64,000 bases of DNA. Source: an uncultured Mycoplasma sp. (lineage in GTDB: Bacteria > Bacillota_I > Bacilli_A > RF39 > UBA660). The notes beneath the pieces are model-generated. The model ran no database searches. It was given only the letters and a program-made list of their open reading frames with translations, and was not told the DNA's origin. How positions within the stretch are numbered: the first letter of the stretch is position 1; each line of letters starts with the position of its first letter. Position numbers and translations under genes: made by a program. Positions 1 through 36,247 of the stretch are shown here, in pieces. The stretch spans positions 73,942 to 137,941 of the forward strand of contig CABUPU010000002.1 in assembly GCA_902493595.1 (NCBI GenBank). Direction: 5' to 3'.

Positions 1-1
1 A

Positions 2-2005
2 GGAGAATTTAATATAACTCCTGGTAATTGTGTAAAAACTGGAAAACAAAGAACTGTAATATGGGATGGTGAAATAAAAATATATGATGAGTATTCGTAT
101 GAAGATAGAAAGTTTATTTTTATAAACAATGATCCCATTGAGATAAAGCCTCTTGAATGGGAATACAATGATATAACAAATAGTCTAATATGTAAACAAA
201 TTATTTGTGATAGTCCTAAAAGTGATTCAATTCTATTTTCTTATATATATATGAATTACTATCTTTTTAGAGAATTATTAGAAAATTACGAAGTAGATGC
301 AACAAATTCTATAAAACTTGTTGATGGAAAAAATGGTACTGTTTTTGCTTATCCTTATGATAATTATATGGAAATAGATGAAAATGGTAATGCAGTATGT
401 CATGATGCAAAGTCATATAATTTGATTATTCCGAAAGGCGTGAAAAAAGTCAAACTAGCGGCCACTAATTCAATTGTTGATGGTGATAATTATGAGTTAA
501 ATTTAAATATCGATATCGATGGAGAGAATTTAAAAATTGGTACAGAGACATTTGATTTTGATTATTTAGATATTGATGCTTCAATTAATAGTTTAACCGT
601 TCGTAATATTACTAAAAGTGTAGAAGATTATTCTTTTAGCTGTAAAAATTTAATAAATAATATCACTATTCCATGTGACTTTACACTTTTCTCTAGACTA
701 TATTTAGGTGGTAATAATAAAACTTCTAAAAATTTGTTTAGGAGTACGAATTTAACTCTTACTTATAAAAATGAAAAAGAATTAATTAATTTCATAAGTG
801 ATGTAAATAGATTTTTAAGTCTTATTATTAAAAGTAACAATAAATGTGCATATACAAATCAATGTGCCGGCTTTGGCTATCATTCTACAAAGGTTGATTT
901 TACATATAAACATAATTTGTATATGTGTAAAGATGTTACTGAGTGTATGCCAAGTGAACGGCTACTAGTAAATAAAGAAATATTATCTATTTTAAAAGTT
1001 AGCTATTTTACTTTAAAAGGCCCGACTATTAGTGATGAATTAATATCAAAATTATTTCCTAATTTTGCAGTAAAAAAGGATTTTACTGATTTAGTTCAAA
1101 AAGAGGATAATACTAAACAAATAAAGGAGTCTAAAGATAAGGAAGAAAAGCCAAAACTTTCAAAAGAAGCAGAACACATACTAGATTTAGCTAGAGAAAT
1201 AATGAGTATTGATTATATAGGCCTTGATAAGGAAGATGTCAGAAATAAAGTAAATGTTATAATTGATGAATATAATACTTCTTATGTAGTCGAAGAGAAT
1301 GGGTTGTCATTATCTACGAATAACGGATTATATACTAATACGATTATTAAATTAGAAAACTTAAGAGATACTTTATATCATAACTTTGAAAAAAATCTTG
1401 AATTTTATGATATCTTAGATTTAATAGAAAGTATGATTAATAAATTAAATGGTGGAGAAGTTAAAATAGATTATGAAATTTTAAAGGACTTAGATACTTT
1501 GACTAAAATAATTAAGTATAGCAAGGATGAACAAACTAAAATAGAACTTATTACTTATTTAGAAAATGAAAAGCAAAATATTATTGATTATTTATGCGGT
1601 AAAAAAGAAATGGATTATAAAAATATAAATGATTTTATTAAAAAATTTAGATTATATTTGATGCCAATACTTACAAAAGTATCTGGTAATGTGTCAAAAA
1701 TTGATGTAATAAAACAAATTAAAAATTATGCTTTAAGTGAAATGAATGATAAAGTAGAAACAAATACAAATAGTTATATAAAAGTTATATTAAGCGAGAT
1801 AAATAAGCTTAAACAAGATATCATTAAGCTTGATGAAAATTATACTTTCGAAGAACTTGATTATTCAGATTTTGCTTCAGGAAAAGAAATAATTGATTAT
1901 TTAGATAATCTATATATAAAATATTATAAAGATTACACTATTTTGCTAAATAAAAAGCAGAAATATGAAGACTATCAAAGTAATATGATTCCTAAAATAT
2001 ATTAA
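2..2005 (+). CDS. paralog-family protein A (5' end outside window): BspA-type LRR-like region plus conserved C-terminal domain
   Basis: The frame of ORF 251..2005 stays open back to position 2. Upstream residues (..IEIKPLEWEYNDITNSLICKQIIC..) align with an internal segment of paralogs B/C/D (e.g. VTPLNWFYDEVSHSLVCKDIIAGF). The IPCDFTLFSRLYLGGN block and the C-terminal ~290 aa (LSKEAEHILDLAREIMSIDYIGLDKE...) are ~80% identical to B/C/D. Confidence 0.75.
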   Translation, partial: GEFNITPGNCVKTGKQRTVIWDGEIKIYDEYSYEDRKFIFINNDPIEIKPLEWEYNDITNSLICKQIICDSPKSDSILFSYIYMNYYLFRELLENYEVDATNSIKLVDGKNGTVFAYPYDNYMEIDENGNAVCHDAKSYNLIIPKGVKKVKLAATNSIVDGDNYELNLNIDIDGENLKIGTETFDFDYLDIDASINSLTVRNITKSVEDYSFSCKNLINNITIPCDFTLFSRLYLGGNNKTSKNLFRSTNLTLTYKNEKELINFISDVNRFLSLIIKSNNKCAYTNQCAGFGYHSTKVDFTYKHNLYMCKDVTECMPSERLLVNKEILSILKVSYFTLKGPTISDELISKLFPNFAVKKDFTDLVQKEDNTKQIKESKDKEEKPKLSKEAEHILDLAREIMSIDYIGLDKEDVRNKVNVIIDEYNTSYVVEENGLSLSTNNGLYTNTIIKLENLRDTLYHNFEKNLEFYDILDLIESMINKLNGGEVKIDYEILKDLDTLTKIIKYSKDEQTKIELITYLENEKQNIIDYLCGKKEMDYKNINDFIKKFRLYLMPILTKVSGNVSKIDVIKQIKNYALSEMNDKVETNTNSYIKVILSEINKLKQDIIKLDENYTFEELDYSDFASGKEIIDYLDNLYIKYYKDYTILLNKKQKYEDYQSNMIPKIY

Positions 2006-2008
2006 GTG

Positions 2009-2042
2009 GTTACTTGCAAAGTAACTGCTTTTTTTATATAAT
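2009..2042 (+). promoter_or_regulatory. terminator hairpin fused to a sigma70-like promoter (copy 1 of 3 of a repeated cassette)
   Basis: gttactt-gca-aagtaac stem-loop followed by T7. TTGCAA (inside the hairpin) - 17 nt - TATAAT, then AAAGGA RBS and the ATG at 2066. Confidence 0.55.
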
Positions 2043-2065
2043 TGTTATAGTAAAGGAAAATAGAT

Positions 2066-4474
2066 ATGAATAAAGTATACATGACTTTTTTAACAGAAAT
2101 GTCATCCTTATCAGAACACAAAAATAGGACGACAACTTTATATGAACCTTTTAATGTAAGCGAAAATGGAACAATGCAAACTGATTTAACAGAGTTTTTA
2201 TATGGTAAAAGAAATGATTATTTTGTATCATATGAACCAGTTAATGATATATGTAGTAAAAAGAAATTAAAAAATAGTTTAGGAATAAACGAGCGCCAGT
2301 TCAAAGGCGATAAAGAAGTATATTATGGTATTAGACCAGTTATTAAAACAACTGGCTCACTTGAAACTTTCATAAGAAAAAATAGTATTAAAGATTTAGG
2401 CAATGATGAATATATGCTTGGCTATTATCCACAAGAGGTTGTTACTGATAAAAATTTAATTCAAGAATTAAGAGTATTTTCTGATTATAATGAAAAAGAT
2501 TATTCTATTCCTAAATATTCTTTTATAGTGCCATGTAAGGGAGTTACATATAAAGGCGAAGATTATATTTATATAAGTGGAAAGAATACTACTTATGTAA
2601 AGGTACAACCGTTAATATGGAAGTATGATAAAGAAAGTAATAGCCTAATTTGTAAAAATATTATCGCGGGTTTTTTAACCAAAACCAAGCCAAAGGCGTT
2701 TTTACATGAGGGATTTGACTTTTTAAATGAATATTTGTTAAGGGATATTTTCAAAGGTAGTATTAAAAGTTTAACCGATAATGTGAAAGTTTGTAATGAA
2801 ATTATACATGATGACTTGCAACGATTTTATCTTCCTTATGAAGGAACTATTGAAATGGATGAGGAAGGAAAATTATATTCACATGATGAAAAAACATATG
2901 AAATTAATATAGGCCCAAAAGTAAAAGTTATATCTAGTAATGCTGTAGAAAATTTATTTGATAATTGCCATAAAGATGGAACATTTGGTGTTGACATTAA
3001 TATTAAAAGCGATGATCTTACTATTTTATCACAAGCATTTGATTTTTCTAAGTCAGGTATTGATGTTTTCATTAGTCATGTAAATATAGATGCAAAAAAA
3101 CTTTCTTTAGCAGAAAAGGTATTTTCAAATGCAAACATGCAAGTAGTTCCAAGATGTGATGAGATATCTATTCCGTGTGATATTAAACTATTTGCAAGAC
3201 TTTATTTGAGTGGAAATAAAGTTGCTAGGAATTTACTTGATAGATCCTTTTTAAAAATTAATTATACATCAGAAAAAGAACTTGTTTCATTTTTAAATGA
3301 TGTTCAAAGATTTGTTAATTTGTTTTCCAAATATGGAGAAAAGTATACTAAAAATGAATATAATCCAAAAAAACGAGGAAATAATAAAATTGATTTTGTT
3401 TATAAACATGATTTATATGAATTTTCCCATTTTGATCTTGTTACATATAATTGTAAAAGTGAAAATTTATTTTACAAACTTAACACTTATGAAATTGTGC
3501 TTTCTGGCCCAAAAATTAATGAAAAACGCGTGTCATCATTTTTCAAAGATTACGCAAGAGTTAAATTTGAGTTCACTGATAAAAAAGCTAGGGAAGAATC
3601 TGCTGATATTAGTAATGATGAATCTCTTACTAAAGAAGCAGAACACATACTAGATTTAGCTAGAGAAATAATGAGTATTGATTATATAGGCCTTGATAAG
3701 GAAAATGTTAAAACAAAAGTCAAAAATATTGTAGGTGAATATAATAATAGTTTGTCGAAGAAAACTGAAGGACTTTCATTAACTACGAATAATGGAGTTT
3801 ATACAAATGCAGTTATTAAGTTAGAAAATTTAAGGGATTCACTGTATTATAACTTTGAAAAAAACCTGGATTATTATGATATTTTAGACTTAATAAAAAA
3901 CATGATTAAAAAACTAAATGATGAAAAGGTTAATTTAGATTATGAAATTTTGAAAGATTTAGATACGCTTAATAAAATTCTTGATTATAATAATGATAAT
4001 AATACGCGAAAAGAACTTATTACTTATTTAGAAAATGAAAGTAAAAGAATAATTGACTATTTATCTGGAAAGGCAGAAATTGATTATAAAAATATAGATG
4101 AATTTGTTAAAAAGTTTAGATTATTTTTAGTACCAATACTTGCAAGAGTAAGTGGTGATGTATCAAAAATTGATGTGATGGAGCAAATAAAAGATTATGC
4201 TATTGAGAAAATGAACAATAAAACTTCGGAAAATACAAATAATTATATAAAGATTATCTTAAGTGAAATAGATATAACGAAGCATCTTATTTTAGAACTT
4301 GATAGTAATTATACATTCGAAGAACTAGATTATTCATCATTTAAAACAGGTAAAGAAATAATTGATTATTTAGATAAAAAATATATGGAGTACTACAAAA
4401 TATATTTAAATCTTATGGAAAATAAGGTTAATGAAGAAAATTATGAAAATAGTAAAGTTCATTTAAATATTTAA
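2066..4474 (+). CDS. paralog-family protein B (802 aa): LRR-like N-terminal/middle region plus conserved C-terminal domain
   Basis: Full ORF with an SD-like AAAGGAAAA upstream. It shares the MxxVYMTF N-terminus, IPCDxxLFxRLYLxGN and the C-terminal 290 aa with C and D. IPxxVxxIxxxAF-type spacing is suggestive of BspA-type LRR (LRR_5). Confidence 0.8.
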   Translation: MNKVYMTFLTEMSSLSEHKNRTTTLYEPFNVSENGTMQTDLTEFLYGKRNDYFVSYEPVNDICSKKKLKNSLGINERQFKGDKEVYYGIRPVIKTTGSLETFIRKNSIKDLGNDEYMLGYYPQEVVTDKNLIQELRVFSDYNEKDYSIPKYSFIVPCKGVTYKGEDYIYISGKNTTYVKVQPLIWKYDKESNSLICKNIIAGFLTKTKPKAFLHEGFDFLNEYLLRDIFKGSIKSLTDNVKVCNEIIHDDLQRFYLPYEGTIEMDEEGKLYSHDEKTYEINIGPKVKVISSNAVENLFDNCHKDGTFGVDINIKSDDLTILSQAFDFSKSGIDVFISHVNIDAKKLSLAEKVFSNANMQVVPRCDEISIPCDIKLFARLYLSGNKVARNLLDRSFLKINYTSEKELVSFLNDVQRFVNLFSKYGEKYTKNEYNPKKRGNNKIDFVYKHDLYEFSHFDLVTYNCKSENLFYKLNTYEIVLSGPKINEKRVSSFFKDYARVKFEFTDKKAREESADISNDESLTKEAEHILDLAREIMSIDYIGLDKENVKTKVKNIVGEYNNSLSKKTEGLSLTTNNGVYTNAVIKLENLRDSLYYNFEKNLDYYDILDLIKNMIKKLNDEKVNLDYEILKDLDTLNKILDYNNDNNTRKELITYLENESKRIIDYLSGKAEIDYKNIDEFVKKFRLFLVPILARVSGDVSKIDVMEQIKDYAIEKMNNKTSENTNNYIKIILSEIDITKHLILELDSNYTFEELDYSSFKTGKEIIDYLDKKYMEYYKIYLNLMENKVNEENYENSKVHLNI

Positions 4475-4477
4475 GTG

Positions 4478-4511
4478 GTTGCTTGCAAAGTAACTACTTT
4501 TTTTATATAAT
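4478..4511 (+). promoter_or_regulatory. terminator hairpin + TTGCAA-N17-TATAAT promoter cassette (copy 2)
   Basis: gttgctt-gca-aagtaac stem (one G.U pair), then a T7 run and TATAAT at 4506-4511. The cassette is near-identical to copies 1 and 3. Confidence 0.55.
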
Positions 4512-4534
4512 TGTTATAGTAAAGGGTGTAAGAT

Positions 4535-6850
4535 ATGGATAGAGTATATATGACATTTTTAAGCAAAATAGATGTGGAGACTCCTTCGATGTTAAATATT
4601 TTAAGAAAAAAGGGACTTATTGCAACTCCAACTGATTTTGTTAAGTATTTATATGGTAATTATTCATATTTAATTGCTAGTGAGCCTTTATATAAAAAAC
4701 AATTTTTAACTACTTTTGATAAATCGTATCCAGATGGTATTAAAAACTATTTTGGAATAAGACCACTTATTGATACAAATAATATGCAAAGTTTCATAGA
4801 AAAAAATGCTATCTCTATTAATGGTAATGAAATTAAATTAGGTAGTTATCCAACAAGTGTAATTAAAGATGAAGCATTAATTCAAAAATTAAGTAATGCA
4901 TATAAAGAAAATAAGTTTAATGATAAAAAGTATCATATACCAATAGGAGATGAAATAATAGAGTGTAATTCAATTACTTTAGATGGCGAAGATTATGTTT
5001 ATATTAAAGAAAATGGTTTATATGTTAAAGTAACGCCACTTAATTGGTTTTATGATGAAGTATCGCACAGTTTAGTTTGCAAAGACATTATTGCAGGTTT
5101 TTCGATAAAACTTTCTGATAGAGCTTTTGAAAAATATGGTTACAACTTTTTAAATGAATATTTATTAAGGGATGTACTTCAAGATAAAATAACTAGATTA
5201 ACAGAACCAGTAGATTTAGTTAACCAAAAGTATTTAGATGAACTGCAGCAAATTGATTTCCCCTTTAAATCTGACTTTGAGGTAAGTAATGAAGGAAAAC
5301 TTTATTTTCACGATGAGAGGGAATATAATATTAACATCGATGACGAAAGCGTGAGAAAAATCGGTGAGTTTGCTCTTGAAAATTTAGATGCTTATGTTCA
5401 TAGAACTAATCCTGTGTTTAATATTAATATAAAAGGTAAAAAGAAAATCGTTGGCCTTCAGGCTTTTGATTTTTCCTCTTTAGGTTTAAATGCTAAAGTT
5501 AAAAGCCTTAATATTGATGTAGATGAACTTCGTGTAGCGGATCCGTTTATATGTGTTAATAGTCAAATTGAAAATGTATCAATGCATTGCGACTTTACTC
5601 TTTTTACAAGACTTTATTTTTGTGGCAAATATTTGGCTCGTAACTATTTAAAAGGTTCTAATTTAACTATTAAATACAAAAATGAAAAAGAACTTATAAT
5701 CTTTTTTAAAGATGTGCAAAGGTTTATTAATTTGCTAGCTAAATCAGATGAGAGAAATAAAATTGACTTTACTTATAAACATTCATTTTATGAGTGCCAT
5801 TCTCTTGCAGAATATAACTACAATTTTAATGCACAAACATTATTTTCTAAAATTGGTTTAGGTAGCATTAAGTTAGTTGGCCCTAGTATAAACAAAGATA
5901 GAATTGCAAATATTTTAGGAGAAATCCCTAATATTAAATATATTTTTACCGATACTCTTGAAGAAGAGACTAAAGAAAAAGATAAAGAGGAAAAACCAAA
6001 ACTTTCAAAAGAAGCTGAACATATACTTGATCTTTCTAGAGAAATATTAAGTATTGAATATATAGGACTTGATAAGGATAGTGTTAAAACAAAAGTCAAA
6101 GATATTGTTGATGAATATAATAATGGTTTATCAAAGAAAAATGAGGGGCTTTCACTAACAACAAATAATGGAGTATACACAGATGCAGTTATTAAGTTAG
6201 AAAAGTTAAGAGATACACTATACCATAATTTTGAAAAAAATCTTAATTATTATGATATTTTAGATTTAATAGAAAACATGATTAAAATGCTAAATAATGA
6301 TGAAGTTAATATAGATTATGAAATTTTAAAAGACTTAGAAACTTTAAATACTATTTTAAAATACAGTAAAGATGAACAAACTAAAGAAGAAATTATTACT
6401 TATTTAGAAAATGAAAGACAATTCATTACTGATTATTTATCTGGTAAGGCAGAAATTGAATATAAAAATGTAGATGAATTTGTTAAAAAGTTTAGATTAT
6501 TTTTAGTACCAATACTTACAAAAGTATCTGGTGATGTTTCAAAAATAGATGTAATGAGGCAAATAAAAGATTATGCTTTTAATGAAATGAATGATAAAAC
6601 TACAGAAAATACAAATAATTACATAAAGCTAATATTAAGTGAAATAGATAAAATTAAGAAAAACATTTTAGAACTTGATAGTGAATATGCATTCGAAGAC
6701 TTTGATTATTCATCATTTAAAACAGGAAAAGAAATACTTGATTATTTAGATAAAAAATATATGGAATATTATAGAGTATATTTAGATCTTATGAAAAATA
6801 AAGCTAACGAAGAAAACTATGAGAATAGTAAAGTGCCTTTAAATTTCTAA
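4535..6850 (+). CDS. paralog-family protein C (771 aa)
   Basis: Full ORF with RBS AAAGGGTG. Its C-terminal domain is ~80% identical to B and D, and it shares the N-terminal motif MDRVYMTFL. Confidence 0.8.
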   Translation: MDRVYMTFLSKIDVETPSMLNILRKKGLIATPTDFVKYLYGNYSYLIASEPLYKKQFLTTFDKSYPDGIKNYFGIRPLIDTNNMQSFIEKNAISINGNEIKLGSYPTSVIKDEALIQKLSNAYKENKFNDKKYHIPIGDEIIECNSITLDGEDYVYIKENGLYVKVTPLNWFYDEVSHSLVCKDIIAGFSIKLSDRAFEKYGYNFLNEYLLRDVLQDKITRLTEPVDLVNQKYLDELQQIDFPFKSDFEVSNEGKLYFHDEREYNINIDDESVRKIGEFALENLDAYVHRTNPVFNINIKGKKKIVGLQAFDFSSLGLNAKVKSLNIDVDELRVADPFICVNSQIENVSMHCDFTLFTRLYFCGKYLARNYLKGSNLTIKYKNEKELIIFFKDVQRFINLLAKSDERNKIDFTYKHSFYECHSLAEYNYNFNAQTLFSKIGLGSIKLVGPSINKDRIANILGEIPNIKYIFTDTLEEETKEKDKEEKPKLSKEAEHILDLSREILSIEYIGLDKDSVKTKVKDIVDEYNNGLSKKNEGLSLTTNNGVYTDAVIKLEKLRDTLYHNFEKNLNYYDILDLIENMIKMLNNDEVNIDYEILKDLETLNTILKYSKDEQTKEEIITYLENERQFITDYLSGKAEIEYKNVDEFVKKFRLFLVPILTKVSGDVSKIDVMRQIKDYAFNEMNDKTTENTNNYIKLILSEIDKIKKNILELDSEYAFEDFDYSSFKTGKEILDYLDKKYMEYYRVYLDLMKNKANEENYENSKVPLNF

Positions 6851-6853
6851 GTG

Positions 6854-6887
6854 GTTACTTGCAAAGTAACTGCTTTTTTTATATAAT
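6854..6887 (+). promoter_or_regulatory. terminator hairpin + TTGCAA-N17-TATAAT promoter cassette (copy 3)
   Basis: gttactt/aagtaac stem, T7 run, TTGCAA at 6859-6864 and TATAAT at 6882-6887. Identical to copy 1. Confidence 0.55.
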
Positions 6888-6910
6888 TGTTATAGTAAAG
6901 GGTGTAAGCT

Positions 6911-9202
6911 ATGAATAGAATATATATGACATTTCCTACTGAAGATGAAGTTAAATTTTTTCCTTGGTTAAAAGATGCAAATTCTTCTGCATTAGTGAGA
7001 GAATTGTTAAAAGATTTATACTATGAATCAGAAACTTTAATTGTGAATAAAAATGATACTTTAAATATTAAGAATAAACGCTTAGGCATTATAGTAAGAC
7101 CGGTTATTAATTCAAATGAATCTCTTGTTCCTTTTATTGAAAAAAATAGAATTAACAAGGGAGGTTATGATAGCATTTTACTTGGAACTTTTCCATTAAA
7201 AGTAGCAAATAATATAGACAGGGGTACGCTTACAGAAACAAATAAAAAAAGAACCATTCCGATTAATTATTCTATGGTAACTTTAAATGAATATACGGAT
7301 GGCAATCGAAATTTTGTTATTGTGGGTGATGATATTATTGAAATATTGCCTATTGAATGGGAATATGATGAAAGCATAAATAAATTATTTTGCAAAACTA
7401 GTATTTTTAAATGTAATACTAGTAAGACAAATGATTTATTGATGGCTTATAATTATATGAATAATCAACTTTTTATGGAAATGCTAGATGATTATACCGT
7501 TATAAAGGATAATTCTGATATAAAATTAATTGATGACAAAGGATACATATCATTTGATTATCCATATAGTTCCTTTATAGAGTTTGATGATTTAGGTAAT
7601 ATAATATTTCATGGTAATGAATATAATCTAACTATACCAAATACTGTAAGAAAAATAGATGAATATGCCTTTGATAAAATTCTTGGAAATGATAGTTCAA
7701 AATTATCTTTAAATATAGATATTGATGGTGATGATTTATCAATACCACCATATGCTTTTAATTTAAATACTATTCGTGCTAATGTACATATTGTGTATTT
7801 AAATGTTCATAACGAGTTAAGTGCAATCGGACAAGCCTCATTTAATACTAATTTTCCTATTGATAATATTACAATTTTGTGCGATTTTGCTCTTTTCTCT
7901 AGACTTTATTTAAGTGGTGATAATTTTGCAAAAAATCTTTTTGAAAATTCAAAATTTACTTTAACTTATACAAGCGAAAATGAATTAGTGAAATTTGTAA
8001 GTGATATAAATAGATTTTTTGAATTAATATATAAAAGTTTGCAAAAAGAAAAAAACAAACGATTTTATTCCAATGATGTAACCTCTATTGATTTTAGTTA
8101 CAAATTTAATACATATAAATATATAGATGCTTCAACTTGTATACCAAATATTGAACTTCTAAAAAACAAAGAAATTTTATCTATTTTAAAAGTAAGCTCT
8201 TTTACTTTAAAAGGTCCGACTATTAGTGATGAATTAATATCAAAATTATTTCCTAATTTTTCAGTAAAAAAGGAATTTACTGATTTAGTTCAAAAAGAAA
8301 AAACTGCAACTAAACAAATTGATGAACCAAAAAATAAAGAAGAAAAGGCAAAACTTTCTAAAGAAGTAGAGCACATACTGGATCTTGCTAGAGAAATAAT
8401 AAGCATCGAATACATAGGTCTTGATAAAGAAACAGTTCGTAAAAAAGTTGATGAAATTGTTATTGAATATAATAATGGATTATCTAAAAAAAGTGGGGGA
8501 TTATCATTAACAACAAATAATGGAGTGTATACAAATACTATTATTAAATTGGAAAACCTAAGAGATGCATTATATCATAATTTTGAAAAAAATCTTGGGT
8601 TTTATGATATTCTAGATTTAATTTCTAGTATGATTAAAAAACTAAATGATGAAGAGGTTAAAATAGATTATGAAATCTTAAAGGACTTAGATACTCTGAC
8701 TAAAATACTTAAGTATAGTAAAGATGAACAAACTAAAAATGAACTTATTTCCTATTTAGAAAATGAAAGCAAAAGAATAGTTGATTATTTATCTGGTAAG
8801 ATAGAAATTGATTATAAAAATATAGATGAATTTGTGAAAAAATTTAGATTATTCTTAGTACCAATACTTACAAGAGTATCTGGTAATGTATCAAAAGTAG
8901 ATGTAATGGAGCAAATAAAGGATTATGCTTTAGATGCAATGAATGATAAAACTACAGAAAATACAAATAATTACATAAAGCTAATATTAAGTGAAATAGA
9001 TAAAATTAAGAAAAACATTTTAGAACTTGATAGTGAATATGCATTCGAAGACTTTGATTATTCATCATTTAAAACAGGAAAAGAAATACTTGATTATTTA
9101 GATAAAAAATATATGGAATATTATAGAGTATATTTAGATCTTGTGGAAAATAAAGTTAATGAGGAAAACTATGAGAATAGTAAAGTACCTTTAATTTATT
9201 AA
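6911..9202 (+). CDS. paralog-family protein D (763 aa)
   Basis: Full ORF. The N-terminus MNRIYMTFP, the IPNTVRKIDEYAF LRR-like units and the conserved C-terminal domain are present. A 205-nt tract is identical to gene C. Confidence 0.8.
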   Translation: MNRIYMTFPTEDEVKFFPWLKDANSSALVRELLKDLYYESETLIVNKNDTLNIKNKRLGIIVRPVINSNESLVPFIEKNRINKGGYDSILLGTFPLKVANNIDRGTLTETNKKRTIPINYSMVTLNEYTDGNRNFVIVGDDIIEILPIEWEYDESINKLFCKTSIFKCNTSKTNDLLMAYNYMNNQLFMEMLDDYTVIKDNSDIKLIDDKGYISFDYPYSSFIEFDDLGNIIFHGNEYNLTIPNTVRKIDEYAFDKILGNDSSKLSLNIDIDGDDLSIPPYAFNLNTIRANVHIVYLNVHNELSAIGQASFNTNFPIDNITILCDFALFSRLYLSGDNFAKNLFENSKFTLTYTSENELVKFVSDINRFFELIYKSLQKEKNKRFYSNDVTSIDFSYKFNTYKYIDASTCIPNIELLKNKEILSILKVSSFTLKGPTISDELISKLFPNFSVKKEFTDLVQKEKTATKQIDEPKNKEEKAKLSKEVEHILDLAREIISIEYIGLDKETVRKKVDEIVIEYNNGLSKKSGGLSLTTNNGVYTNTIIKLENLRDALYHNFEKNLGFYDILDLISSMIKKLNDEEVKIDYEILKDLDTLTKILKYSKDEQTKNELISYLENESKRIVDYLSGKIEIDYKNIDEFVKKFRLFLVPILTRVSGNVSKVDVMEQIKDYALDAMNDKTTENTNNYIKLILSEIDKIKKNILELDSEYAFEDFDYSSFKTGKEILDYLDKKYMEYYRVYLDLVENKVNEENYENSKVPLIY

Positions 9203-9211
9203 ACTTCATAT

Positions 9212-9243
9212 AAAAAGTAGGATTAATAAAAATCCTATTTTTT
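9212..9243. terminator. bidirectional rho-independent terminator between the convergent gene D and the membrane-protein gene
   Basis: taggatt-aataa-aatccta hairpin flanked by an A5 run upstream and a T6 run downstream. Confidence 0.6.
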
Positions 9244-12641: not shown

Positions 12642-14543
12642 ATGTTTTATAAACTAATTCATACACGTATTAGATATATTTTTTTATTTGTATTTATAAT
12701 TCTTTTATGTGTAATAATAAAAGTATTTTATATTGAGGTAATAAGCTATAATAAACTTAAAAGTTTATCAGATGATTTATACTCAAGAAATCTTCCTATT
12801 AAAGCTGATAGGGGTAAAATAGTAGATAGAAATGGGTTAGTACTCGCAGATAATATTACAACTACCTCGCTTGTTTTAGTGCCAAGACAAATTAAAGATA
12901 AAGAAAAAGTAGCTAAAGATTTATCTGATATTTTAGGCACTTCTTACGAAGATATGCTTGCTCATGTAAGTAAGAAAACCTCAATTGAAAGAGTTCATCC
13001 TGAGGGAAGAAGACTTTCTTATGAAATCTCAGACAAAATAAATGATTTAAATTATGATGGAGTTTATCTTCTAAAAGAAAGTAAAAGGTATTATCCATAT
13101 AAAGAACTTTTATCGCATACTTTAGGTTATGTTGGTATAGATAATCAGGGCTTAAGCGGTCTTGAACTTATTTATGATGAATATTTAAAAGGTGAAGATG
13201 GCTCTATTAAATATTTTTCTGATGGTAAAGGAAATCGTCTTGAAATGGCGCAGGTTTATGAAAGCCCGACTGATGGGATAACTATAGGCTTAACTATAGA
13301 TTTAAATTTGCAAAAAGCAGTTGAGGGTGCCCTTGATGAAATAGTTTCTAAATATACTCCAGAACATGCTTTAATACTTGCAATGGATCCGCAAAGTGGA
13401 GAAATACTTGCTATGGGTTCAAGACCAGGATTTGATCCAAATAATTATAAAGATTATGATACTGAAACCATTAATAGAAATCTTCCTATTTGGATGACTT
13501 ATGAACCAGGTTCAACTTTTAAAATAATTACACTTGCCTCTTCGATTGAGGAAAAAACTATTGATTTATTCAAAGATACTTTTACTGATAGTGGTTCAAT
13601 TAATGTTGAGGGTGCAACACTACACTGTTGGAAACATGGGGGTCATGGAACGCAAACTTATCTTGAGGTAGTGGAAAATTCTTGCAACCCGGGATTTGTA
13701 TCAATGGGTCAAAAACTTGGTACACAAAAACTTATGAGTTATATAAAAAGTTTTGGTTTTGGTAAAAAAACAGGAATAGATTTAAATGGTGAAAGTAATG
13801 GAATACTTTTTAATATAAATAAAATGGGCCCAGTGGAAACTGCAACAACAGCATTTGGACAAGGAATAAGTGTTACTCCGTTGCAACAAATAACCGCAGT
13901 TAGTGCAGTCGTAAATGGAGGGAATTTATATAAACCTTACATAGTTAAAAGTTTAATGAATGAAAGTGGTGCACTTCTTGATTATAATGAAAAAGTTTTA
14001 GTAAAAAAAGTTATTAGTAAAGATACTTCCTCTCTTGTTAGATTTACTTTAGAGAGTGTTGTTGCTAATGGTACAGGAAGAAATGCATATATTGAAAATT
14101 ATCGTGTTGGTGGTAAAACAGGTACTGCTCAAAAAGTTGTTGATGGAAAATATTCATCCTCAAGTTATATTTTATCTTTTGTTGGTTTTATGCCTGCGGA
14201 TAATCCTAAAATTGTTATATATGTTGCAATTGATGGTGCCAAAAATGTAACTCAATATGGTGGTACTGCCTCTGCTCCAGTTGCTAAAAGTATTCTTACA
14301 AGTGCAATAGATATTTTAGGTATAAAGCCCTCAAAAGAGGGAATGCCTAAAGAGTATAATTATTTAGATAAAAAATATACCTATGTTCCTGATGTTACAG
14401 GAATGAGTCTTGAGGATGCTAAAAAAACTTTAAAAGGATTTAAAATTGAACTTTCTGGTAATGGTGAAAAAGTGTTTTATCAATCACCTGAAGTAGGTAC
14501 TTATATAGAGGAGGGTTCAACCGTAATGTTAATGCTTAAATAA
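12642..14543 (+). CDS. class B penicillin-binding protein (FtsI/SpoVD-like transpeptidase) with C-terminal PASTA domain
   Basis: SxxK (STFK), SxN (SCN) and KTG(T) motifs. N-terminal TM anchor, dimerisation domain, and a PASTA-like C-terminus (YVPDVTGMSLEDAKKTL...). Confidence 0.85.
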   Translation: MFYKLIHTRIRYIFLFVFIILLCVIIKVFYIEVISYNKLKSLSDDLYSRNLPIKADRGKIVDRNGLVLADNITTTSLVLVPRQIKDKEKVAKDLSDILGTSYEDMLAHVSKKTSIERVHPEGRRLSYEISDKINDLNYDGVYLLKESKRYYPYKELLSHTLGYVGIDNQGLSGLELIYDEYLKGEDGSIKYFSDGKGNRLEMAQVYESPTDGITIGLTIDLNLQKAVEGALDEIVSKYTPEHALILAMDPQSGEILAMGSRPGFDPNNYKDYDTETINRNLPIWMTYEPGSTFKIITLASSIEEKTIDLFKDTFTDSGSINVEGATLHCWKHGGHGTQTYLEVVENSCNPGFVSMGQKLGTQKLMSYIKSFGFGKKTGIDLNGESNGILFNINKMGPVETATTAFGQGISVTPLQQITAVSAVVNGGNLYKPYIVKSLMNESGALLDYNEKVLVKKVISKDTSSLVRFTLESVVANGTGRNAYIENYRVGGKTGTAQKVVDGKYSSSSYILSFVGFMPADNPKIVIYVAIDGAKNVTQYGGTASAPVAKSILTSAIDILGIKPSKEGMPKEYNYLDKKYTYVPDVTGMSLEDAKKTLKGFKIELSGNGEKVFYQSPEVGTYIEEGSTVMLMLK

Positions 14544-14631
14544 CTTCCGCTTGAATTTTAAAATATTTTTAAGACACTTTTAAAAAGCCTAAAAGTATTG
14601 TATACTAATTATAGTAAGATAGGTGATATTG

Positions 14632-14889
14632 ATGAGACAAACAAAAGGAATAGTTACTGAGGTATTTATGCCAAATGAATATAGAGAAGAGTTACTTCTT
14701 GATACATTAGATAATAATGTAATCGGCTTTAAAGTAAATACTAGTGATGGAGAAAGAGTAATAATCGAAGAAATTGATGAATTTAATAGTCAAATAATGA
14801 AGGATGACTTAGTTTTGATTACTGAGCAAACTATTGATGGTCATTATTTTATAGATATAGAACTTACTGAGGATGAAAATGAAATATGA
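14632..14889 (+). CDS. small acidic hypothetical protein (85 aa) immediately upstream of and overlapping the helicase gene
   Basis: ORF with AGGTGA 5 nt upstream of the ATG at 14632. It overlaps the helicase start by 17 nt, which suggests coupling. Confidence 0.45.
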   Translation: MRQTKGIVTEVFMPNEYREELLLDTLDNNVIGFKVNTSDGERVIIEEIDEFNSQIMKDDLVLITEQTIDGHYFIDIELTEDENEI

Positions 14890-17800
14890 TGTAGTAGGAT
14901 TATATGAACATAATGAAATAAGTTATGATAAAGTAAAAGAAGCTTTTAAAACTAGCGATGTTGTGGGAATAGTTCAAGCAACAGGTACTGGTAAAAGTTA
15001 TAATGCTTTACAGATTTGTTATGATAATCAGGGCAAAAAAATAATATATGTTGTGCCATCTTTAGGAATTATTGAACATATTAAATCAATAATCGAAGAA
15101 AATCCTAACTTATCATTAGATAAAGATTTTAAAAATGTTGAATTTAGAACCTATCAAAGTTTTTTAAACCTTTCAAAAAAAGAAATGGAAAGCATACCTT
15201 GTGATTTAATAATAGATGATGAATTTCATCATCTTGGAGCACCTGTATGGGGACAAAGAGTTAAAACATTTATAGAACTTCATCCAGGTGTTAAAGTATT
15301 TGGAATGACTGCTTATACTGTAAGAGATCGTGGAACAATATATGAAAGAGATATGGCTAATCCTGATACTGATGAATTGTTTTCAAATAAAATAGTTAGT
15401 AAATATGATTTATGTGATGCAATGGTTGATAAGGTATTACCAAAACCAATATATAAATGTGCTTATATAGGGTTAGAAAAAATGTTAAATGAATTCGAAG
15501 CCAAAGTAAAAGAAAGTAGCAAAGAAATAAATGAACTACTTGAAAGTGCTAGAAAGAAAGTCCACGAAGCACCAAGTATTAAAGATTTAGTAATAAAATC
15601 AATTAAGAAAAATGGTAAATATATTTATTTTTGTCCGCCATATTCAGAAAAAGGTGAAAATGATATTGAAAGTATAAAAAAGGAAGCCTTAGAATGGTTT
15701 AAATCTATTCTTCCCGAAGAAGATATTGTATTTTATACCTCGACAAGTGATATGGGAACATTTGGAAAGCAAAATAGAAAAGCTTTTTACAATGATTTAG
15801 ATTTAGAGGGTAAAGATGCCAAAGGAAAACTTCGTGTAATGTTTGCTATAAATCAATATAATGAAGGAATACATGCTCCCAATGTAGATGGAGTAATAAT
15901 GGGAAGAACAACTACATCAGATATAGTATTTTTTGAGCAGTTAGGAAGAGCATTGTCCGTAAAAGGAAATACTTTCGAAGAATATAATCATTTAATAAAT
16001 TTAAGTTATGAACAGTTACTCCAATTGTGTAAAGATAAAGATATTCCAGTAAAAGAAGATGCTACTAAAGAAGATATGATAGAAAGTTTACTTGCACCAG
16101 TGGTAATCGATTTAGTGGGAAACTATGAATATATAAAAGAACTTGAAAATAATTTACAAAATAGAGTTAAGGAAATTCAAAGTAAAGGCCCAGGTAATGA
16201 AAGAGTTATTAAATTAAAAAATCCTACATTTGATATTGAAGTTGAAAATAAAAACTTATATGAAATGTTAGAAAATTTAAGAGAAAAATTAACACTTTCT
16301 TGGAATGATATGTATGAATATGCAAAAAAATATTACGAACATTATGGAAATCTCGATGTACAGTATAAATTTAAAACCAATGATGGCTTCACTAAAAATG
16401 ATGATGGTAAAATAAATCTTGGGGTGTGGATTACTAATCAAAGACATAAACTTACTCCAGAAAGTGAAAAAGGAAAATTATTATTGCAAATAGGAATGAG
16501 TTTTGAAAATAAAAAAAGTACTTTTTCTTGGGAAGAAATGTATGAGTATGCAAAAAAATATTATGAGCATTATAAAAATCTTGAAGTTCCTCATAGGTTC
16601 AAAACCGATGATGGTTTTTCGTCAAATGAATATGGAAAAATAAATCTCGGAGTTTGGATTCAAAATCAAAGATATAAAATTTCTGTAGATAGTGAAAAAG
16701 GAAAGTTACTTTCTCAAATAGGAATGCGTTTTGAACGGAAAAAAATCTCTTGGGAAGAAATGTATGAATATGCAAAAAAATATTATGAACATTATAAAGA
16801 TCTTGAGGTGCCTATCAAATTTAAAACAAACGATGGTTTTACTAGAGATGACAATGGCAAAATAAACTTAGGAGCTTGGCTTCAAAATCAGAAATATATT
16901 ATTTCCCCGGATAGTGAAAGAGAAAAGTTACTAATGCAAATAGGAATGCACTTTGAGCGAAAAAATATTTCTTGGGAAGAAATGTATGAATATGCAAAGA
17001 AATATTATGAACATTATAAAGATCTTGAAGTACCTGCTAAATTTAAAACAACTAATGGATTTACTAAAGATGACAATGGTAAAATTAATTTAGGAATATG
17101 GATCTTGTCTCAAAGGCATAATATTTCTCCGGACAGTGAAAAAGGAAAGTTATTATCACAAATAGGAATGAGTTTTGAAAATAAAAAAAGTACTCTTTCC
17201 TGGGAAGAAATGTATGAATATGCAAAGAAATATTATGAACATTATGGAAACCTTGAGGTATCTGCCAAATTTAAAACGAATGATGGTTTTACTAGAGATG
17301 ACAATGGTAATATTAATTTAGGTGCTTGGATTTCATATCAAAGAAAAAGAGTTTCTCCAGAAAGTGAAAAGGGAAAACTACTATCACAAATAGGAATGCG
17401 TTTTGAAACAAAGAAAAATGTTTCTTGGGAAGAAATGTATGAGTATGCAAAGAAATATTATGAACATTATGCAAACCTTGAGGTACCTAACAAATTCAAA
17501 ACCAATGATGGTTATACCTTTGATGAGAAAGGTGAAATAAATCTTGGAAATTGGATTATTGCACAAAGGCATAATATTTCTCCGGACAGTGAAAAAGGCA
17601 AACTACTTTCACAAATAGGACTGCGTTTTGCAAATTTAAGAAGTCTAATTTCATGGGAAGAAATGTATGAGCAAGCTAAAAAATATCAAAAATATTATGG
17701 CAATCTTGAAGTACCTAAAAAATTTAGAACTGATGATATTTATACTTATGATAAAAATGGTAAAATTAAATTGGGATTATGGGTAGATAGAATGCGTAAA

Positions 17801-18634
17801 ACAATTGATCTCCAAAGTGAAAAAGGCAAGCTACTTACGCAAATTGGTATGAGATTTACTGAAGAAGTTCCGGATGAAGTTTGGTTAAATATGTATTCTT
17901 ATGCAAAAAGGTATTATGATACATGGGGATATTTAGCAAATATGAACTGCGAATTTAAAACCAATGATGGCGTTAATTACGATAAGTATGGCAAAATTAA
18001 TTTGGGATTATGGGTAGATGAACAAAAAAATCTTATTGCTCCGGAAAGTAAACGAGGTAGAATGCTTGCCCAACTTGGTATGGATTTTCCTAAAAAGAAA
18101 ATGACCTGGTTTACAATGTATGAACTTGCAAAAAAATATTATGAATACTACGATAATCTTAGAATTCCTATAACTTTTAAAACTAACGATGGAATTAATT
18201 ATGATAAAAATGGTAAATTTGACTTAGGACTGTGGTTATTTCGCCAATTTGAAAACAATGACCCGACTAGTGAACAAGGTATTTTACTTTCAAATATTGG
18301 AATGATATGGAACAATGATATAAGACTTTTACAACTTCATATAGCGTGTGATGCTCACAAAATAGACTTTGAAAAGTATAAAGATGAGCTTTTCAAAATT
18401 CCAATTTCCTTGTTATGTGCCAAAATGGATTTTTTATACTTTAATTCTATTCCAATTATAGATAGTGAAGGCAATCTTAATGAAATATTTAATTTAAATA
18501 GTACTGAAATTTATGAAAAATATAATATTACAATTAAACAGTTACTTTCTAAATATAAGTCTACTTTAAACTTTTGCAGTTATATTCTTAAAAAACGATT
18601 AAGTGAGAGTGAAAAAAATAAAAAAGTTTTATAA
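14873..18634 (+). CDS. DEAH/ResIII-type SF2 helicase with nine C-terminal helicase-associated (HA, PF03457-like) domains
   Basis: Walker A-like ATGTGKS and motif II DDEFHH (DEAHH-like) at the N-terminus. Then nine ~73-aa units of pattern SWEEMYEYAKKYYEHYGNLEVPxKFKTNDGFTxDDNGKINLGxWIxNQR...EKGKLLSQIGMRF. Confidence 0.75.
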   Translation: MKMKYDVVGLYEHNEISYDKVKEAFKTSDVVGIVQATGTGKSYNALQICYDNQGKKIIYVVPSLGIIEHIKSIIEENPNLSLDKDFKNVEFRTYQSFLNLSKKEMESIPCDLIIDDEFHHLGAPVWGQRVKTFIELHPGVKVFGMTAYTVRDRGTIYERDMANPDTDELFSNKIVSKYDLCDAMVDKVLPKPIYKCAYIGLEKMLNEFEAKVKESSKEINELLESARKKVHEAPSIKDLVIKSIKKNGKYIYFCPPYSEKGENDIESIKKEALEWFKSILPEEDIVFYTSTSDMGTFGKQNRKAFYNDLDLEGKDAKGKLRVMFAINQYNEGIHAPNVDGVIMGRTTTSDIVFFEQLGRALSVKGNTFEEYNHLINLSYEQLLQLCKDKDIPVKEDATKEDMIESLLAPVVIDLVGNYEYIKELENNLQNRVKEIQSKGPGNERVIKLKNPTFDIEVENKNLYEMLENLREKLTLSWNDMYEYAKKYYEHYGNLDVQYKFKTNDGFTKNDDGKINLGVWITNQRHKLTPESEKGKLLLQIGMSFENKKSTFSWEEMYEYAKKYYEHYKNLEVPHRFKTDDGFSSNEYGKINLGVWIQNQRYKISVDSEKGKLLSQIGMRFERKKISWEEMYEYAKKYYEHYKDLEVPIKFKTNDGFTRDDNGKINLGAWLQNQKYIISPDSEREKLLMQIGMHFERKNISWEEMYEYAKKYYEHYKDLEVPAKFKTTNGFTKDDNGKINLGIWILSQRHNISPDSEKGKLLSQIGMSFENKKSTLSWEEMYEYAKKYYEHYGNLEVSAKFKTNDGFTRDDNGNINLGAWISYQRKRVSPESEKGKLLSQIGMRFETKKNVSWEEMYEYAKKYYEHYANLEVPNKFKTNDGYTFDEKGEINLGNWIIAQRHNISPDSEKGKLLSQIGLRFANLRSLISWEEMYEQAKKYQKYYGNLEVPKKFRTDDIYTYDKNGKIKLGLWVDRMRKTIDLQSEKGKLLTQIGMRFTEEVPDEVWLNMYSYAKRYYDTWGYLANMNCEFKTNDGVNYDKYGKINLGLWVDEQKNLIAPESKRGRMLAQLGMDFPKKKMTWFTMYELAKKYYEYYDNLRIPITFKTNDGINYDKNGKFDLGLWLFRQFENNDPTSEQGILLSNIGMIWNNDIRLLQLHIACDAHKIDFEKYKDELFKIPISLLCAKMDFLYFNSIPIIDSEGNLNEIFNLNSTEIYEKYNITIKQLLSKYKSTLNFCSYILKKRLSESEKNKKVL
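16293..18310 (+). repeat. nine tandem ~220-bp coding repeats (HA-domain units); the central six are near-identical at the DNA level
   Basis: Units start near 16297, 16527, 16749, 16968, 17199, 17420, 17652, 17880 and 18105. The block tcttgggaagaaatgtatga(a/g)tatgcaaa(a/g)aaatattatgaacattat recurs. Confidence 0.8.
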
Positions 18635-36170: not shown

Positions 36171-36247
36171 TGGCGTCCTCGGGGGGATTTGAACCTCTGA
36201 CCTACCCCTTAGGAGGGGGTCGCTCTATCCAGCTGAGCTACGAGGAC
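36171..36247 (-). tRNA. tRNA-Arg (anticodon CCU), CCA encoded
   Basis: Minus-strand sequence GUCCUCGUAGCUCAGCUGGAUAGAGCGACCCCCUCCUAAGGGGUAGGUCAGAGGUUCAAAUCCCCCCGAGGACGCCA. It has a 7-bp acceptor stem, a canonical D-arm, an anticodon loop CU-CCU-AA, and T-loop UUCAAAU. By my folding the T-stem has two A.C mismatches. Confidence 0.8.

Follow-up and report, generated by a model that had tools for sequence, protein, structure and literature searches.

Identity tracts between tandem paralogs of an uncultured human-gut Bacilli lineage as probable footprints of homologous recombination

Introduction

How can paralogous genes that have diverged over most of their length still share long stretches of identical DNA? 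This question is raised by a tandem gene array at the left end of the window—the whole 64,000-nt stretch of contig CABUPU010000002.1 (GenBank assembly GCA_902493595.1) analyzed here—in which four genes, A, B, C, and D, stand head to tail. Genes A and B have an exact 72-nt tract in common, and genes C and D an exact tract of 205 nt. Comparison of paralogs, orthologues, and strains makes it very probable that these tracts are footprints of homologous recombination among the tandem paralogs, mostly in the form of nonreciprocal ectopic gene conversion. The process is the known one of ectopic gene conversion with concerted evolution; the gene family is previously undescribed. Its host belongs to a lineage of uncultured Bacilli from the human gut; among named records, 'Mycoplasma sp. 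CAG:472' is the nearest.

Exact tracts between neighboring genes

The 72-nt tract spans positions 1163–1234 in gene A and recurs at 3632–3703 in gene B with 72 of 72 nt matching; the adjoining bases differ, and it is thus maximal. The 205-nt tract (6586–6790 in C, 8938–9142 in D, 205 of 205 nt, all copies on the plus strand) can likewise not be extended by one base at either end. The original prediction had reported both tracts at these positions and had called the gene pairs non-adjacent, which is wrong: A/B and C/D are neighbors, one repeat unit apart. It had also put the identity of the flanking DNA at about 75–85%. For C–D, it is 84–88% to the left and about 82% over the last 60 nt of the genes. 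The stated figure is too high for A–B, where the right flank reaches 63–72% and the left flank is unalignable. The start of the 72-nt tract is the exact boundary between a variable linker and the conserved C-terminal domain. The identity profile along the paralogs is mosaic, and the boundaries of the tracts are sharp.

Chance cannot be the source of either tract. The longest chance repeat in Markov-1 simulations of the 9.4-kb region was 16–19 nt. Over the last 900 nt of the genes, the in-register identity is 72% for A–B and 85% for C–D, and the expected numbers of runs this long at those identities are 1e-8 and 5e-13, respectively; at generous local identities of 85% and 93%, they are 1e-3 and 2e-5. 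A Sawyer-type permutation of polymorphic sites was carried out on a codon alignment of five paralogs with 5000 permutations. The C–D run comprises 86 polymorphic sites, and 0 of 5000 permutations gave one as long over the whole alignment (p = 0 also within the 3′ region alone). The A–B run comprises 25 polymorphic sites, with a global p = 0 and p = 0.005 in the conserved 3′ part. With third codon positions only, p = 0 is obtained for C–D (run of 45 sites) and p = 0.035 for A–B (run of 16 sites).

A third significant tract, absent from the original prediction and the only one linking non-adjacent genes, connects A and D (33 polymorphic sites, global p = 0). It belongs to a module at 974–1110 in A and 8168–8304 in D, both on the plus strand, whose two copies are about 95% identical and contain exact runs of 45 and 23 nt, while Z (the paralog preceding A), B, and C reach only about 50% there. 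Genes B and C share an exact 47-nt tract (4095–4141 = 6471–6517, plus strand) that is found in all arrays of the same-species population described below, and 54 nt are identical between two of the spacers (2003–2056 = 6848–6901); the original prediction contains neither of these.

Orthologues and conflicting trees

Orthologues from other genomes set the tracts apart from the genes that carry them. The A orthologue of CAKONK01 (L005_A2) is near-identical to the A of the window just before the 72-nt tract; behind the tract, identity is 95% for the first 500 nt and 93% thereafter. Inside the tract, by contrast, it differs at 12 positions (83% identity). There, not one base separates the A of the window from the resident B or from the B genes of L002, L005, L007, and L008, four other genomes in all of which the tract is fully conserved. 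As the tract of A matches B orthologues while its flanks match the A orthologue, B appears to have converted A. On this comparison, the patch in A, the recipient, is B-type sequence of about 72–76 nt in an A backbone, and B holds the probable donor type. The other A copy of that genome, L005_A1, is A-type as far as the beginning of the same tract and B-type from there on; since it switches at the same point, the boundary of the C-terminal domain is a recurrent junction.

The 205-nt tract behaves in a similar manner. True C orthologues (L007_C, L002_C, and L010_C) have strongly different sequence across it, and its sequence type is found on L011_D3 (95% identical) and on tails attached to other heads (L005_B, L005_A1, and L007_A). 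Because C orthologues differ and a D orthologue carries the tract type, a D-type tail segment seems to have replaced the sequence of C, making C the likely recipient and D the likely donor type. Counted back from the stop codon of C, the replaced part covers nt 265 to 61, and the last 60 nt are still different. Taken together, these comparisons show that patches were copied: A received about 72 nt from B, C received 205 nt or more of D type, and a block of about 135 nt passed between A and D.

The paralogs also group differently along their length. Neighbor-joining bootstrap supports (A,D) at 100% and (C,Z) at 98% over alignment columns 0–1500, (B,C) at 92% and (A,Z) at 90% over columns 1760–2250, and (A,Z) and (C,D) at 100% each over columns 2250–2514. 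As read from the N-terminal tree (A,D)(C,Z) and the C-terminal tree (A,Z)(C,D), whole modules have been reassorted. Similarity of the C-terminal part tracks physical neighbors—Z with A, then B, C, and D—and that of the N-terminal part does not. Since C-terminal likeness follows adjacency, the 3′ module undergoes concerted evolution by local exchange. The 72-nt and 205-nt tracts lie in this conserved 3′ module; hence, they homogenize the copies rather than diversify them.

Variation of the array among strains and species

All sequences compared are short-read metagenome assemblies. Ten loci carrying the D protein (L015–L024) come from independent samples, with both MEGAHIT and SPAdes among the assemblies, and their flanks are 99–100% identical to the window, except for a locally variable penicillin-binding protein (PBP). 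The structural variants that had been predicted for the array were found among these independent same-species assemblies. L015, L016, L017, and L023 have Z and A alleles that are only 80–85% identical to those of the window, and L018 has another A allele. For L016 and L024, the middle module of C alone is replaced, with a synonymous divergence (dS) of 0.72 versus 0.06 and 0.13 in the neighboring modules. Gene D is invariant across all population loci.

L021 contains only Z, a chimeric A/C gene, and D; B is gone, and so is most of C. Over nt 1–1400 the chimera is 100% A, over about 1450–1950 it is 100% C, and over about 2000–2200 it is A again, after which it is C to the end including the spacer; the same arrangement is present on one further contig. 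To judge from these parental segments, a crossover between A and C removed B in L021, showing that crossover between copies changes copy number.

The tracts themselves vary as well. The C–D tract measures 205 nt in L017, L018, L019, and L020 and 202 nt in L024; in L015, L016, L022, and L023 it is divided into 77 and 87 nt by a 41-nt patch with 10 clustered differences. The 72-nt tract is present in every strain analyzed (eight arrays). It is fixed in all sampled strains of the species and is therefore not very recent, so that the word 'recent' in the original prediction does not apply to it. The claim that the patches were homogenized by recombination or gene conversion is borne out by orthologue incongruence, conflicting trees, and structural variants.

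Beyond the species, the array is composed differently: Z–C in CAG:472, Z–C–A–A–B in CAKONK01, Z–A–B–C in CAKOIF01, and Z–D in UBA6448, with copies scattered over three loci in CAKOOO01. At one of the latter, a second chromosomal locus (L013:9977-14039, CAKOOO010000002.1), a B-like and a D-like copy stand beside neighbors of 298 aa and about 280–300 aa that resemble open reading frames (ORFs) at about 42–44 kb of the window in size only. The family can, thus, relocate as well as expand in place. In-register exact tracts recur in these genomes—265 nt between A1 and B of L005, 134 nt between Z and D of L012, and 72 nt between B and D of L013—and together with the strain variants they agree with the earlier description of the array as an actively recombining substrate. 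In L011, D seems frameshifted only because some of its bases are masked as a run of N, which is no biological difference. A comparison of the window strain with CAG:472 gives 99.5% identity for the distal paralog X1 and 73–82% for its neighbors.

Allele classes within the species differ in their variable modules by dS 0.5–0.76, with a ratio of nonsynonymous to synonymous divergence (dN/dS) of 0.2–0.45, and the breakpoints between alleles fall in or beside conserved segments. Flanking genes have dS of about 0–0.02, and comparisons of the housekeeping PBP give dN/dS of 0.02–0.06. Such values imply that the alleles are old and functional, and have been kept side by side or re-imported. Balancing or frequency-dependent selection would seem to fit this pattern better than rapid positive selection.

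Gene B has been knocked out independently in two strains at sites 14 nt apart: by a 1-nt deletion (AAA to AA) at nt 788 of L016 B (L016:5148-7555) and by a GGA-to-TGA change at nt 802 of L020 B (L020:5156-7564). The latter is a true nonsense mutation since genetic code table 11 holds for this genome. Knock-outs so close together suggest that B has been selected against repeatedly or else that this site is a mutational hotspot.

Proposed mechanism of exchange

The route proposed for these patterns is general homologous recombination, with the conserved 3′ module and spacer—recurring every 2.35–2.47 kb—acting as homology arms and the conserved first 25 nt of the genes as a lesser arm. Nonreciprocal events would leave patches of 40–265 nt, reciprocal unequal events would delete or duplicate units and create chimeras, and exchange with DNA of other strains would swap variable modules. 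The exchange is presumably RecA-dependent and would not need a dedicated recombinase. No recombinase or reverse-transcriptase domain was found among the scanned near neighbors of the array; MutS is encoded in the window, and inverted repeats in the array are only imperfect, AT-rich, and at most 30 nt long. Long exact tracts might themselves seed further exchange. Conversion would keep the C-terminal module uniform for a function common to all copies, and the N-terminal and middle modules might be kept diverse by balancing or frequency-dependent selection.

Alternative explanations

Could the tracts have arisen without any recombination, as ancestral sequence held identical by strong purifying selection while the remainder diverged? 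The 72-nt tract does encode the most conserved motif of the family, and in B it is 100% conserved across genomes whose B genes differ by 2–7% overall. Synonymous sites are identical too, however, with the third-position runs of 16 sites in A–B and 45 in C–D given above; C and D encode nearly the A/B peptide at the site of the 72-nt tract yet differ at 11–12 nt; C orthologues differ heavily across the 205-nt tract; and L005_A2 carries 12 differences in 72 nt inside the tract amid 95% identity outside. An account without recombination is, hence, barely credible. Artifacts of assembly, by which near-identical repeats of paralogs or strains are collapsed or mis-joined, deserve somewhat more attention and are still improbable. 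The window is a SPAdes metagenome contig, tracts of 72–205 nt are comparable to or exceed assembler k-mers, related contigs break within the conserved tails (e.g., L002–L004), and the L021 chimera switches parent four times. On the other side, four independent samples have the 205-nt identity and all eight arrays the 72-nt identity, the same D protein stands on 22–23 contigs, tract boundaries are sharp and the same across samples, and the orthologue contrasts come from genomes of other species and are independent of the assembly of the window. A programmed variation system—cassette antigenic variation or a shufflon, in which dedicated machinery rewrites an expressed copy—seems highly improbable, even though tandem divergent copies of a hypervariable family in host-associated, reduced-genome Bacilli, the independent knock-outs of B in two strains, and the varying copy number and order would suit it. 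All copies are complete ORFs, those of A–D with their own promoter-like site, ribosome-binding site, and terminator-like hairpin; domains of recombinases and reverse transcriptases are lacking from the near neighbors scanned, and the only inverted repeats are the imperfect ones mentioned; the 72-nt and 205-nt tracts sit in the conserved and not in the variable module; and no signal peptide or lipobox was found, with the T-run length of the promoter stable across strains.

An origin of the patches by import from other strains or species through transformation or horizontal transfer, rather than by copying between resident paralogs, is unlikely but closer to the data than the foregoing accounts. 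Strains clearly do exchange allele classes: Z, A, the middle module of C, and x3 (a small gene of the array) stand at dS 0.5–0.76 amid 99–100% identical flanks, the high identity of X1 with CAG:472 contrasts with that of its neighbors, and the D-type tail occurs on different heads in different genomes. Yet the tract of C has 0 of 205 differences to the resident D, where other sampled D-type tails differ by 4–8%, the tract of A is identical to the adjacent resident B, and C-terminal likeness tracks adjacency in the array, as intragenomic exchange predicts. Import and intragenomic exchange are not exclusive, and both probably operate. Several points weigh against conversion between resident paralogs as the full account. 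Selection contributes to the preservation of the 72-nt tract, although it gives no account of the L005_A2 contrast. Perfect identity and the multi-switch chimera of L021 could partly be products of assembly, such as bubble popping and wrong joins. The donor of the C–D tract could be a D-type tail of another strain instead of the resident D, the one argument to the contrary being the 0 of 205 differences to the resident D, set against 4–5% to other D-type tails. Finally, the inferred direction of transfer rests on a handful of orthologues: in the 72-nt tract, B equals all B orthologues and A is the altered copy, whereas the direction for C–D is drawn from few orthologues, and a double crossover is possible. 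With these reservations, recombination among the tandem paralogs, mostly by gene conversion, is the explanation we prefer.

Anatomy of the array

Part of the parent contig (ENA ERZ857791 NODE_55, 169 kb) is identical to the window, and on it the array extends beyond the left edge of the window. The order is X1, X2, x3, Z, A, B, C, and D, followed by a convergent DUF2207_C gene. X1 (709 aa) and X2 (718 aa) form a distant pair, about 30% identical to the other paralogs, and x3 encodes 158 aa with a single strongly hydrophobic segment. Z, A, B, C, and D are each full-length ORFs, of 763, 766, 802, 771, and 763 aa, respectively. Gene A (1–2005, plus strand) has its first 295 nt outside the window and its true start at L001:7640; its reading frame is open from base 2 of the window and complete on the parent contig. 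Gene B (2066–4474, plus strand) has orthologues with 92–97% identity in four other genomes, and gene C (4535–6850, plus strand) has orthologues with 75–88% identity. Gene D (6911–9202, plus strand) is the last of the array, and the contigs with its identical protein come from independent samples.

The head-to-tail repeat unit measures about 2.35–2.47 kb, and all copies have one orientation. Its 5′ part (about 1.5 kb) is variable, whereas its 3′ part (about 0.8 kb) and the 60-nt spacer are conserved. Sliding-window nucleotide identity is 40–65% in the 5′ part and 65–100% in the 3′ part. Further copies of the family were not found elsewhere in the window. Internal tandem repeats were rejected, the sole case being a trivial 23-nt two-copy repeat.

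The spacers Z/A, A/B, B/C, and C/D are 60 nt long and near-identical. Each contains a 12-bp hairpin and a run of six or seven T, with a folding free energy (dG) of −11 to −13 kcal/mol and a z-score of −3.5 to −4.6, overlapped by TTGCAA-17 nt-TATAAT and then an AAAGGA ribosome-binding site. For the A/B spacer (2004–2065, plus strand), the hairpin with T7 lies at 2004–2030 and the promoter-like site at 2014–2042 (dG −12.9, z −4.6). The B/C (4473–4534; dG −12.0, z −3.8) and C/D spacers (6849–6910; dG −11.0, z −3.5), also on the plus strand, have a terminator-like hairpin and a promoter-like site as well. Z itself starts after a 17-nt gap behind x3, with a ribosome-binding site, and a further hairpin (9215–9240; dG −8.9 kcal/mol, z −2.8) is located 3′ of D, between D and the convergent DUF2207_C gene. 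Going by these consensus matches, each of A–D looks like its own transcription unit. Phase variation by a homopolymer in the promoter spacer was rejected: among 16 spacers of seven loci, the T-run is six or seven long, and the six-T form is a T-to-A substitution that leaves the length unchanged.

The array is located in the core chromosome and not on a mobile element. Beyond the DUF2207_C gene follow genes for a Nudix protein, an AAA_14/DUF4143 ATPase, a class B PBP, an HA-domain helicase, MraY, and rpoB/rpoC, and rpsD, relA, mutS, and smc are found elsewhere in the window. The GC content is 26%, and the genetic code is table 11; code 4 is ruled out, with TGA terminating 4 of 40 ORFs and long conserved genes intact under table 11. 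Apart from a single tRNA-Arg(CCT) at 36171–36247 on the minus strand, no RNA genes were detected in the window.

Downstream of the array, the PBP gene (12642–14543) is 96–99% identical between same-species strains, with the 5 kb upstream (D, DUF2207_C, Nudix, and AAA_14) at 100% and the downstream helicase at 98–100%. This local mosaic is reminiscent of the recombinant pbp genes of streptococci, as an analogy. Neither L016 nor CAG:472 (L010) has the block at 14623–18634, which comprises an 88-aa ORF and a ResIII helicase containing seven HA repeats; in both, the PBP gene directly precedes MraY. CAG:472 also lacks the AAA_14/DUF4143 ATPase and the DUF2207_C gene. As the block is missing in relatives, the region downstream of the array is also a hotspot of accessory genes.

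The protein family

The variable 5′ part of the genes encodes an N-terminal and a beta-rich middle domain, and the conserved 3′ part a helical C-terminal domain. The 72-nt tract in A encodes KEAEHILDLAREIMSIDYIGLDKE at the start of the latter, with E534, I535, S537, I538, Y540, and G542 invariant in the family. For B, an AlphaFold2 model has a mean predicted local distance difference test score (pLDDT) of 63, with low confidence for residues 1–84; it suggests beta-rich (85–230), repetitive beta (277–400), and alpha/beta regions (403–505) followed by an all-helical C-terminal region (523–794). With this model, Foldseek returned nothing from PDB or BFVD. Scans of the paralogs and x3 yielded no usable match in Pfam, with thresholds of E ≤ 0.01 and of E ≤ 10, nor in NCBIfam or PADLOC; a sequence profile search of PDB was negative as well, and PHROGs gave weak sub-threshold matches only (best E 8.6e-4 for Z and 2.7e-3 for x3). 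No hydrophobic N-terminus, membrane segment, signal peptide, or lipobox was found in Z and A–D, whose maximum Kyte-Doolittle score over 19 residues is 0.9–1.2, compared with 2.8 in x3; the proteins may still be exported by a nonclassical route.

The family counts 286 clusters among 5.8 billion proteins and occurs in eight loci of about six genomes among 185,579 species representatives, all of uncultured gut Bacilli near CAG:472. A second homologue search, with a profile including X1 and X2, gave the Z-dominated list over again, with no added diversity. An exhaustive profile search of 1.84 billion representatives gave 140 matches. One remote group has the N-terminal domain only, often in proteins of 220–350 aa, some of them fused to AAA_5, ankyrin, or Sel1/TPR; the other comprises proteins of about 550–600 aa with the N-terminal and the C-terminal helical domain and without the middle region. 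DUF6273 is present in 11 of 98 examined remote homologues of the N-terminal domain, whereas the window proteins have no DUF6273 match at E ≤ 10 (seven paralogs). This domain has a C-type-lectin-like fold and is a target of diversity-generating retroelements (DGRs) (PMC10743442; bioRxiv 10.1101/2024.10.15.618418). The literature found on DUF6273 consists of DGR and phage papers only, and nothing relevant was found on hypervariable tandem paralogs in gut metagenomes; the papers found on RFN20 and CAG-472 deal with taxonomy and 16S only. The N-terminal domain appears distantly related to domains adjoining DUF6273, an indirect link with no direct match, and its motifs might be read as a permuted lectin-like domain.

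Two remote relatives stand in contexts of their own. Another gut Firmicute with 28% GC carries a tandem array (L027:8273-17039) of five shorter relatives of 562–611 aa, which have the N-terminal and helical C-terminal domains and no middle region. Between its non-adjacent members, in-register exact tracts of 65 and 50 nt occur near the 3′ ends. Immediately downstream of this array are two signal-peptidase-like (S24/S26) genes, one of which, encoding 247 aa, was identified by motif reading and has no Pfam match. Behind a single-copy relative of 626 aa (L025:10001-14209) come a 131-aa ORF and a protein with DUF2201_N/DUF2201 (VWA-like metallopeptidase). The latter context and the AAA_5 fusions hint at an intracellular MoxR/VWA-type setting for the N-terminal domain.

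Tentatively, the array proteins may bind ligands with a specificity that differs from copy to copy, through a C-type-lectin-related head mounted on the helical module that they all share, in some conflict with phages, mobile elements, or the host. The helical module might engage a partner used by all copies, for which the membrane protein x3, encoded in the array, is a candidate. A bolder and less likely proposal is that the locus as a whole is a combinatorial diversification locus of small-genome gut Bacilli, in which proteins lacking export signals join interchangeable lectin-related and beta-repeat specificity modules to the common helical module. Homology-arm cassette exchange inside strains and among them, and neither a retroelement nor a recombinase, would renew the repertoire, and the locus would act at a conflict interface, for instance by sensing components of phages or mobile elements or by binding ligands of the host or of phages. 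This would fit alleles of dS 0.5–0.76 in a 99–100% identical background, their dN/dS of 0.2–0.5, and the two losses of B, as well as the tandem array of L027 and the N-terminal fusions to AAA_5, ankyrin, and Sel1.

Significance

While the mechanism is textbook, the value of the locus lies in an unannotated, lineage-restricted family that forms the most variable locus in a near-clonal stretch of chromosome. Gut metagenomes from many independent samples contain the uncultured human-gut lineage with this array. The layout of the units, with variable heads, conserved tails, and conserved spacers that carry terminator and promoter signals, explains how reshuffling could proceed without a dedicated enzyme. 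For practical purposes, the array is a concrete marker for strain tracking in the species and also a warning for assemblers and pangenome tools, as it fragments or turns chimeric in short-read assemblies. If the family does mediate phage or host interaction, it would be a new example of gut-microbiome diversity driven by balancing selection.

Comparison with known systems

Several well-known systems resemble the array in part. The lipoprotein arrays of Mollicutes—vlp of M. hyorhinis, vsp of M. bovis, and vsa of M. pulmonis—have a conserved 5′ promoter and lipoprotein signal and switch by homopolymer slippage or site-specific inversion. They share with the array tandem paralogs, conserved and variable modules, a strain-variable copy number, and a reduced AT-rich genome; the conserved 5′ lipoprotein part, slippage, and inversion are, on the contrary, all missing from it. 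An inversion shufflon of the hsdS, vsa, or pilV type was rejected given the single orientation, inverted repeats that are imperfect and at most 30 nt long, and no neighboring recombinase among those scanned. Cassette antigenic variation, as in Neisseria pilE/pilS, Borrelia vlsE, Mycoplasma genitalium mgpB/MgPar, and Treponema tprK, combines one expression site with promoterless partial donors, and conversion rewrites variable, surface-exposed regions. Segmental gene conversion, mosaic genes, and a host-associated bacterium are common to both, but the copies of the array are complete with expression signals, the patches homogenize a conserved module, and no export signal is seen.

DUF6273 proteins are, like the window proteins, hypervariable binding-type proteins of gut Firmicutes, and our own motif reading finds DUF6273-like motifs ('..V.LLS..E', 'GIRPV', and 'P.EW..D') in the latter. 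They differ from DUF6273/DGR systems in that no DUF6273 match was obtained at the threshold given above and in that their diversity stems from recombination of alleles and paralogs. No reverse-transcriptase domain was found in the scanned near neighbors (up to about 10 kb downstream) or in those other ORFs of the window that were scanned, and template and variable repeats were not searched specifically; by eye, the differences between paralogs are not adenine-specific. Polymorphic-toxin arrays with orphan cassettes (Rhs, CDI cdiA-CT/cdiI, and LXG) likewise use repeated conserved segments as homology arms for module swaps and vary strongly among strains. Their polarity is reversed, as the array is variable at the N-terminus and conserved at the C-terminus. 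Since its spacers are only 60 nt long, the array, unlike toxin arrays, holds no small immunity genes, and toxin or trafficking domains were not detected in its proteins.

The closest counterparts are families with ectopic gene conversion, such as babA/babB and other outer-membrane-protein paralogs of Helicobacter pylori, opa of Neisseria, and tufA/tufB of enterobacteria. The array differs from them by its head-to-tail order, its 60-nt spacers with their own signals, its conserved module at the 3′ end, its unannotated protein family, and the lack of an apparent export signal. It agrees with them in short, seemingly nonreciprocal patches of tens to hundreds of nt between functional paralogs, mosaic identity, conflicting trees, and copy-number change by unequal crossover—all of this apparently without dedicated machinery.

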